In this document: positions 10,347 to 11,537 of the stretch, one piece after another
Layout: each line of letters starts with the position of its first letter
How positions within the stretch are numbered: the stretch's first letter is position 1
Made by a program: the position numbers and the translations under genes
Source of the DNA: Capsulimonadales bacterium
Lineage (GTDB): Bacteria; Armatimonadota; Armatimonadia; Armatimonadales; Armatimonadaceae
DNA length: 11,537 bases
Direction of reading: 5' to 3'
NCBI GenBank assembly: GCA_033762295.1
Contig: JANRLW010000005.1
Coordinates: 1-11,537, forward strand
Notes under the pieces: model-generated
What the model saw: only the letters and a program-made list of their open reading frames with translations
Databases searched by the model: none
What the model was told of the DNA's origin: nothing

Positions 10347-11537
10347 ATGGCAAAGGCCCGTTTTGAGCGCAGCAAGCCTCACGTCAACATCGGCACGATC
10401 GGTCACGTCGACCACGGCAAGACGTCGCTGACCGCCGCCATCACCAACGTTCTGGCCAAGCAGGGCATGGCCCAGGCCAAAGCCTACGACCAGATCGACG
10501 CCGCCCCGGAAGAGAAGGAGCGCGGCATCACCATCAACACCGCTCACGTGGAGTACGAGACCAAGAACCGTCACTACGCCCACGTGGACTGCCCCGGACA
10601 CGCCGACTACATCAAGAACATGATTACCGGGGCCGCCCAGATGGACGGAGCGATCCTGGTGGTGTCGGCGGCGGACGGTCCGATGCCGCAGACGCGCGAG
10701 CACATCCTGCTGGCGCGCCAGGTCGGGGTTCCCTCGATCGTGGTGTTCCTCAACAAGGCGGACATGGTGGACGACCCGGAGCTTCTGGAGTTGGTGGAGT
10801 TGGAAGTGCGGGAGCTTCTGTCCAAGTACGATTTTCCCGGGGATGACACGCCGATCGTGATCGGCAGCGCGACGGAGGCGTTGTCGGGAGCGCAGAGCGA
10901 GATCGGGGAACCGGCGATCCTGAAGCTGATGGAAGCGGTGGACAGCTACATCCCGACGCCGGAGCGTCCCAAGGACCTTCCGTTTTTGATGCCGGTGGAG
11001 GACGTGTTCACGATCACGGGTCGCGGTACGGTGGCGACGGGTCGTGTGGAGCGTGGTCAGTTGAAGGCGGGGGAGCCTCTGGAGATCGTGGGTCTGAAGG
11101 CGACGACGAACACGGTGGCGACGTCGATGGAGATGTTCCGCAAGGTTCTTGACTACGTGGAGGCGGGGGACAACGCGGGGATTCTTCTTCGTGGGGTGGA
11201 CCGCAAGACGATCGAGCGGGGTCAGGTGTTGGCCAAGCCGGGTTCGATCAAGCCGCACACGAAGTTCATGGCGGAGATCTATGTTTTGTCGAAGGAGGAG
11301 GGGGGCCGTCATACGCCGTTCTTCAACAACTACCGTCCTCAGTTCTACTTTAGAACGACGGACGTGACGGGGGCTTTGACGTTGCCCGAGGGTGTGGAGA
11401 TGGTGATGCCGGGGGACAACGTGACGATCACGGCGGAGTTGATCGCTCCGATCGCGATGGAGGAAGGTCTTCGATTTGCGATTCGTGAGGGCGGTCACAC
11501 GGTCGGGGCCGGAGTCGTCGCCAAGATCGTGGCGTAA
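10347..11537 (+). CDS. tuf: Elongation factor Tu
   Basis: [22 protein letters not shown] and [13 protein letters not shown]. 396 aa, complete to TAA. AGGA SD. Confidence 0.99.

Follow-up and report, generated by a model that had tools for sequence, protein, structure and literature searches.

A mid-gene switch of synonymous codons in tufA of an Armatimonadota bacterium: G skew probably linked to gene conversion, beside a 5' block that may resist it

The locus described here raises the question of why one uninterrupted gene is spelled with two different sets of synonymous codons. The window, a stretch of 11,537 nucleotides from one contig (C5) of a MAG that is 94% complete, ends with a tuf gene of 396 amino acids (10347..11537, forward strand; TIGR00485 over the cut-off), in which the original prediction had described an abrupt switch at about 10640-10650. 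Its hand counts of Ala and Thr codons either side of the codon 101/102 boundary were all exact on recount: in codons 1-101, Ala is GCC in 13 of 15 cases and never GCG, and Thr is ACC in 6 of 8, whereas in codons 102-396 Ala is GCG in 21 of 26 and Thr is ACG in 22 of 22. The accompanying shift of Val and Gly towards GTG (23/30) and GGG or GGT (22/27), and the appearance of TTG (10 of the 27 Leu codons), were also borne out, and the coding sequence continues unbroken across the switch, as had been claimed. At four-fold sites, the counts pass from C28/G9/T6/A3 before the switch to G108/C21/T32/A3 after it. A change-point test placed the best boundary at codon 101/102, with a G statistic of 48.9 against a maximum of 24.4 in 1000 shuffles. 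Since the final C-ending four-fold codon before the switch is codon 97 (10635-10637) and the earliest G-ending one after it is codon 102 (10650), the step lies within codons 97-102 (10638..10650) and is not placed more finely, in agreement with the predicted position.

With amino acids controlled, the size of this step ranks third among 3403 genes (|z| 6.54). The same scoring of 26 housekeeping or highly expressed genes gave |z| of at most 4.0, and none of the 26 passes from C to strong G. The single-copy highly expressed genes of the MAG therefore have no such 5'/3' flip, and a conversion origin of the switch is not contradicted by them. Relative to the housekeeping genes of the MAG, G deviates by +0.37 (z 8.9, an excess) in the 3' tract and by -0.23 (z -3.0, a deficit) in codons 1-101. 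The anomalous side is the 3' G tract, the derived state, and the 5' block is near normal and native-looking. The flip from C to G was thus described correctly, but the near-normal state of its 5' side, with the anomaly in the 3' side, and the return to C in the last 16 codons had been overlooked. Along the gene, codons 1-24 (10347..10420) are identical to those of the second copy, tufB, and are not G-rich (four-fold C6 G1 T3 A1). They are followed by a C-rich block diverged from tufB and with single-copy-like codon usage (codons 25-97, 10421..10637), the step zone, a G-skewed tract (codons 102-380, 10650..11486; four-fold G104 T31 C15 A2; mean GC skew of the 3' part, +0.24) and a C-leaning tail (codons 381-396, 11487..11537; C6/G4), the last being found in most tuf genes, one- or two-copy.

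The MAG contains tuf three times: whole on C5, as its first 258 nt on C10, and as its last 141 nt on C34, which overlaps the window at 11397..11537. On C10, tRNA-Thr(ggt) precedes tuf, and on C5/C34, tuf is followed by rpsJ. These are two distinct canonical contexts, as in relatives tRNA-Thr lies upstream of tufB and rpsJ downstream of tufA. Because of these contexts, and because an independently assembled sister species (L268) carries the leader, tuf and rpsJ on a single contig arranged as in C5/C34, we regard the window gene as tufA and C10 as the start of tufB, which is assembled only to nt 258 (90% identical to tufA there). The contig C5 breaks exactly at the tuf stop codon, as would be expected if the second copy has the same end, with tufB as the presumed cause. 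C10 is a compositional outlier and could thus be the contig of a close strain; its genes have no duplicates elsewhere in the assembly and the first 74 nt of its tuf equal those of tufA, and from sequence we assign it to this genome or to a very close strain. In relatives tufB is followed by tRNA-Trp, which in the MAG is found by itself on C2. The gene fusA is not 5' of the window tufA but on C47, and the str operon is split into three (rpsL-rpsG on C117, fusA on C47 and tuf-rpsJ on C5/C34). The 3' end of fusA has a 161-bp direct repeat flanking a 1.2-kb insert (C47:19713-19873 and 21067-21227), resembling an integration target.

The tufA leader has diverged from that of L268 except for 26 consecutive identical bases (10225..10250, forward strand), which comprise a putative extended -10 promoter (TATAAT, 10230-10235) followed by a G+C-rich stretch. 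This identity suggests that the tufA copy probably has its own promoter there; a consensus promoter scan listed 10305-10334, which is not conserved, and did not list 10225..10250. A hairpin predicted at 10237-10270 is kept in L268 with one U-A to U-G change, as is a second paired segment at 10285-10307, recognised by eye only. The leader (10225-10310) had no match in Rfam, and it may regulate a tufA-S10 operon that is transcribed from a promoter of its own.

The EF-Tu of a family member is assigned by its sources to Armatimonas rosea, which puts the MAG in Armatimonadota. We compared mid-gene G excess, measured over codons 131-370, across this phylum, in which the number of tuf genes is one in some families and two in others. 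Genomes with one tuf match in an assembly of 1-40 contigs were scored as single-copy; four of these 20 had fewer than 300 baseline codons and were omitted, leaving 16 (one further genome, G013, was omitted from the codon-profile comparison). The median excess was +0.23 in the 24 two-copy genomes and -0.06 in the 16 single-copy genomes, and it was above 0.15 in 14/24 and 0/16, respectively. The family means also separate by copy number (p = 0.003), although the genomes are kin and p-values are overstated. More diverged copies had less G among these kin genomes (Spearman -0.46, p = 0.024). In other phyla, where 68 of 80 loci were kept after removal of one locus (L112) and of 11 others in which the baseline or the number of sites was too small, the agreement was looser: the excess was seen in 17/37 two-copy and 3/27 single-match genomes, and copy divergence did not correlate with skew (-0.15, p = 0.37). 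Three single-match MAGs with strong excess (L101, L087 and L129) possibly have a hidden second tuf copy. A Rokubacteria MAG (L145) is extreme, with G/C counts in its Ala/Thr/Val/Gly codons of 28/0 (codons 20-101) and 66/0 (codons 150-350). Duplication is not sufficient for the skew, since 10 of the 24 two-copy relatives are without it, some with near-identical copies (G006, G017 and G243), and Pseudomonas and Massilia tuf loci have little or none; stronger translational selection may lie behind the two-copy genomes without excess. The link to gene conversion between duplicate tuf genes drawn in the original prediction is supported: two copies are present, the G excess tracks copy number, and the single-copy highly expressed genes do not flip.

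The step itself is real and inherited. In L268, whose tuf has 98% protein and 86% DNA identity, G/C changes from 2/16 to 74/16 at codon 96 (0/200 shuffles as large). In the single-contig genome G036, the two tuf copies are without any codon difference and both have the step; G030, G028 and G029 show the same pattern, and in G028, also a single contig, both copies step. Significant change points (0/200 shuffles) were found in 7/24 two-copy and 0/20 single-copy relatives, at codons 111-117 (G036, G030 and G028), 165-173 (G040, G027 and G029) and 204 (G153), so that the position is similar but not fixed. A difference (mid-gene minus block) above 0.3 was found in the MAG and six of the 24 two-copy relatives, all six in family f2, and in none of the 16 single-copy relatives. 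As the step was in 0/68 scored genomes of other phyla, it is lineage-limited; families f1 and f2 presumably belong to the order Armatimonadales. A read-archive search for the MAG found no run above 0.14 of sampled words, and four read runs aligned at 85% yielded just short pieces from other organisms.

The explanation that we favour, with a probability of roughly 0.55, is a conversion-linked G skew like that of GRINS, in combination with a lineage-specific block in which conversion is rarer or selection opposes the skew. In this model, tufA and tufB would exchange sequence by gene conversion, and where this is frequent, silent differences would be resolved with a strand-asymmetric bias towards coding-strand G and, more weakly, T, slowly respelling the gene in the manner of GRINS to GCG/ACG/GTG/GGG/TTG. 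A block of Armatimonadales tuf, at about codons 30-100, would experience rarer conversion and/or stronger selection for the C-ending codons of single-copy tuf; it would keep its native spelling, and the step would be its edge. We infer both conversion as the cause of the skew and the reason for the resistance of the block. G/T exchanges make up 29 of the 53 four-fold differences between the MAG and L268 in the skewed tract, which would be expected under a bias towards both keto bases.

For the source of the bias, our guess would be unequal handling of heteroduplex mismatches by MutS. C:C mismatches are poorly recognised by MutS, but this blind spot alone does not explain the bias, because G is favoured over A as well as over C, and T only weakly over C. 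MutS1 is present in the MAG, and MutL in the MAG and 4/4 others, single-copy genomes included. NucS/EndoMS was rejected as a general cause of a G+T bias, as no match was found in the MAG (94% complete, as noted) or in four of five strongly skewed relatives; G028 has two weak partial matches just over the cut-off. Other near-identical repeats in the MAG are short or at contig ends and provided no second test of the skew. Two prepilin-like genes, 94% identical over 454 nt (C2:8864-9315 and C71:29381-29834), have more C than G on the coding strand (about C48/G30 and C44/G21) and are not G-skewed. In Salmonella, according to the available part of one study (PMC5485169), unequal mismatch repair shapes tuf conversion tracts.

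Comparison of the window gene with the other tuf copy, one of the checks proposed originally, gave a divided result. Over nt 1-74, tufA and tufB do not differ (0/74) and tufA differs from its L268 orthologue at 14/74, but over nt 75-258, the limit to which tufB is seen, the copies differ at 25/184 nt and seven residues, and tufA differs from L268 at 23 nt and no residues. The paralogues are thus closer than the orthologue in the first part and not closer in the second (0/74 then 25/184, Fisher p = 0.0002). The identity of codons 1-24 indicates recent homogenisation, and the seven differences, common to tufA and L268, indicate that the last homogenisation of the block predates the separation of the two species. 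They are at residues 34, 37, 41, 44, 49, 73 and 74 of the first 86 (window 10446-10568) and possibly represent a functional difference, judging from the sequences; in closed relatives, tufA and tufB proteins are mostly identical. In 10 other Armatimonadales, 23 silent differences between copies fall in codons 25-100 and 33 in codons 101-380, a 2.6-fold higher density per codon in the former (p = 0.0009, with tracts not independent). However, present-day escape from conversion alone is insufficient, because in G036, G028 and G029 the block is wholly or almost wholly identical between the copies, yet C-rich. Moreover, codons 60-86 contain more G in tufB than in tufA despite being unconverted, and codons 1-24 of the MAG are homogenised yet not G-rich. 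The codon usage of the block is similar to that of single-copy genes: the 20-codon profile over codons 41-100 is -0.17/-0.11/-0.22 in two-copy Armatimonadales and -0.16/-0.06/-0.24 in single-copy genomes, and the G deficit at codons 36-97 is -0.29 in the MAG against -0.30 to +0.06 in the 16 single-copy genes.

A second reading, which we consider possible but rather improbable, is that the bias itself reverses sign, favouring C/A on the coding strand up to about codon 100 and G/T thereafter, with heteroduplexes on opposite strands around a fixed point. The C-richness of blocks with identical copies would fit this reading, and the four-fold G+T deficit of the block (-0.26, -0.27, -0.31, -0.29 and -0.21 in the MAG, G036, G030, G028 and G029) is at or beyond the single-copy range (-0.22 to +0.21, 16 genes) in these five genomes, which were, however, chosen after the data had been seen, four of them being congeneric. 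The deficit of G itself is at the edge of the single-copy range and not clearly outside it, A is not enriched in the block (two-fold G/A, 16/2 against 40/4 downstream), codons 1-29 are G-rich again in family f2, and the absence of the step from the scored genomes of other phyla also speaks against it. In the literature, the accessible parts of PMC8256042 describe both signs on one strand in GRINS, and those of PMC5485169 describe uniform initiation of conversion in Salmonella tuf. The preferred initiation point with opposite bias on either side that had been suggested for this gene is therefore not required, as the 5' block has the single-copy profile and initiation in Salmonella is uniform, although the G+T deficit remains a hint in its favour.

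Selection alone could also hold the block C-rich against a uniform G bias, e.g. for Rho loading (EF-Tu autoregulation) or accurate decoding of the GTPase motif, and we think this still a little less probable than a reversal of sign. At codons 30-100, a shift towards C of more than 0.1 is also seen in 11 of the 16 single-copy tuf genes of Armatimonadota, so that selection may help. The block has also survived heavy silent turnover: between the MAG and L268, 28/46 four-fold sites (61%) differ in codons 1-101 and 53/138 in codons 102-380. The gene rho is present in the MAG, and nt 1-303 of tufA have a GC skew of -0.14; an excess of C over G and little structure are features of Rho sites. On the other hand, the block is not less structured than shuffles (folding z -1.23) and had no match to an RNA element in Rfam; it is eroded in two genomes of the same order (G031 and G027) and absent in three others (G141, G208 and G251); single-match genomes of other phyla have no C shift there (median +0.07); and the C-richer copy is tufA rather than the tRNA-linked tufB, the copy which is controlled via a Rut site in Salmonella (PMC12360218, in the part available). 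Conversion-linked skew is common to selection alone, the sign reversal and our favoured resistant block, and taken over all three it is very probable.

Acquisition of the 5' block in a single event from an unskewed donor, which would make the gene a natural recombinant of two tuf alleles, as had been proposed among others, is quite unlikely. The lack of fusA upstream of tufA, its own leader and the poor resolution of the block trees would be compatible with such an event. However, the step has outlasted the turnover of most silent sites, with 16 of 30 four-fold sites in codons 25-86 differing between the MAG and L268 and both remaining C-rich, and it recurs in a second family. Separate phylogenies of the two segments, mostly unresolved, both grouped the MAG with L268, with support in the 3' part (97/96) but not in the block.

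An ordinary mutation bias of the replication or transcription strand on a highly expressed gene is more unlikely still. Genes in the tuf direction do have a higher G share than opposite genes (0.57/0.62/0.53 against 0.50/0.45/0.45 on C5, C10 and C34), and all eight tuf copies of four closed genomes point away from the origin, as judged by dnaA position. However, the ribosomal-protein genes adjacent to tuf have G shares of 0.31-0.62 against 0.87, and fusA, rpoB, rpoC, groEL, dnaK and atpAD have no such step. Two closed relatives, sampled at 20 stretches of 20 kb, had a skew of at most 0.09 with inconsistent sign, and local replication skew is too weak a source. The single-copy tuf controls without excess refute strand bias as the sole cause.

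About 124 kb of the MAG (C89, C22, C13 and C53) does have a GC skew of 0.16-0.22, against a contig median of 0.03, which would be in line with a strand bias, and holds 29 of the 33 most skewed among 1657 windows of 3 kb. The genes of this domain have opposite G shares by strand (about 0.73 and 0.2-0.3), and its housekeeping genes (purA, miaA and minD by sequence reading) are without a close second copy. The largest step of the genome is in a dnaE-like gene (C76:2621-5000), with four-fold G/C of 45/285 in the first 800 codons and about 20/30 thereafter; it has no near-identical copy assembled, and its step may mark where the skewed domain ends. Just 5' of this gene is a repeat array that is possibly CRISPR, and Cas-like genes (named by eye) are on C22 and C53.

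An assembly chimera of paralogues or strains, also among the original proposals, might be suspected from the partly collapsed tuf repeat in a MAG whose reads were not found, but it is refuted by the separately assembled L268, 86% identical with the same step and leader-tuf-rpsJ order, and by the single-contig genomes G036 and G028 that step in both copies.

The new elements in this study are the copy-number test of tuf skew and the conserved unskewed block. tuf is routinely employed as a marker in phylogenetics and taken to exemplify optimal codon usage; if the silent sites of two-copy tuf are set by conversion bias, both uses would be misled in slow-growing lineages. The skewed duplicated gene encodes the most abundant protein of the cell. 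Unlike polyketide synthases, it is a single gene, of which the genomes of one phylum have either one copy or two, and the conserved unskewed block offers an internal control and a testable boundary. An established tuf conversion assay is described in the part of PMC5485169 available to us. A literature search found no paper on skewed tuf, most subscription journals being outside its scope; G-ending codons were reportedly noted in older papers on Thermus tuf.

Among known systems, GRINS are the closest. The available text of the 2021 description (PMC8256042) deals with polyketide synthases, transposases and other mobile genes and gives the mechanism of the skew as unknown; its main text and the supplement searched do not contain 'tuf', 'EF-Tu' or 'elongation factor', which image or dataset tables could name. 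GRINS are defined there by duplication of more than 500 bp at more than 80% identity and by mean absolute GC and TA skews above 0.15 (150-nt windows, step 30). The duplication in the MAG comprises the 258 nt of tufB that are 90% identical and a presumed common end of 141 nt, and in closed relatives it reaches the defined extent (22/396 codons differ in G030 and 11/396 in G027). The mean absolute GC skew of tufA is 0.202, above the threshold and reached by 16/1435 genes of similar length, and 12/24 two-copy and 1/20 single-copy relatives exceed 0.15. The TA skew is marginal: the value of 0.151 for the full gene is due to A-rich 5' windows, and the 3' part taken by itself has 0.073. Both skew thresholds were passed by 2/24 two-copy and 0/20 single-copy relatives. 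In tufA, the third-position GC skew ranges from -0.42 to +0.70, and GC and TA skews are correlated (r = 0.83, overlapping windows), but this is not diagnostic of GRINS, because the median r of single-copy tuf is 0.48. From these figures, with the duplication seen in relatives, the tuf skew seems to work like GRINS: it is intense and abrupt at third positions of a duplicated, converting coding region with the protein kept. Differences are that tuf is an ancient, essential gene, that its T-over-A component is weak, and that the place of the step is conserved within an order.

The concerted evolution of tufA and tufB (Paulsson et al. 2017, PMC5485169; Wang and Chen 2018, PMC6053082) is similar in its two copies in tRNA-Thr and S10-linked contexts, homogenised by conversion. 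The available parts of both papers, however, describe no base skew (the words 'skew', 'guanine' and 'strand' are absent from that of PMC6053082), and in Salmonella conversion occurs uniformly over the gene, in contrast to the present tuf, in which a 5' block with seven residue differences resists. In the autoregulation of Salmonella tufB through a Rho site (Brandis et al. 2016, as tabulated in the accessible part of PMC12360218), the likeness is that the C-rich 5' coding block could serve Rho, with rho present; the difference is that the C-richer copy here is tufA, with a role that is putative.

GC-biased gene conversion is a fixation bias tied to recombination and not to selection, which acts on G and C alike. 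The bias of tuf would share the tie to recombination but separates G from C on one strand. It is tentatively conceivable that a bacterial, strand-asymmetric counterpart of this process respells paralogues and that in Armatimonadales tuf its sign reverses near codon 100, a fixed and inherited point. If so, tufA and tufB would be a natural, genetically tractable map of the position and strand of conversion heteroduplexes, and the simplest system for the unexplained skews of GRINS.
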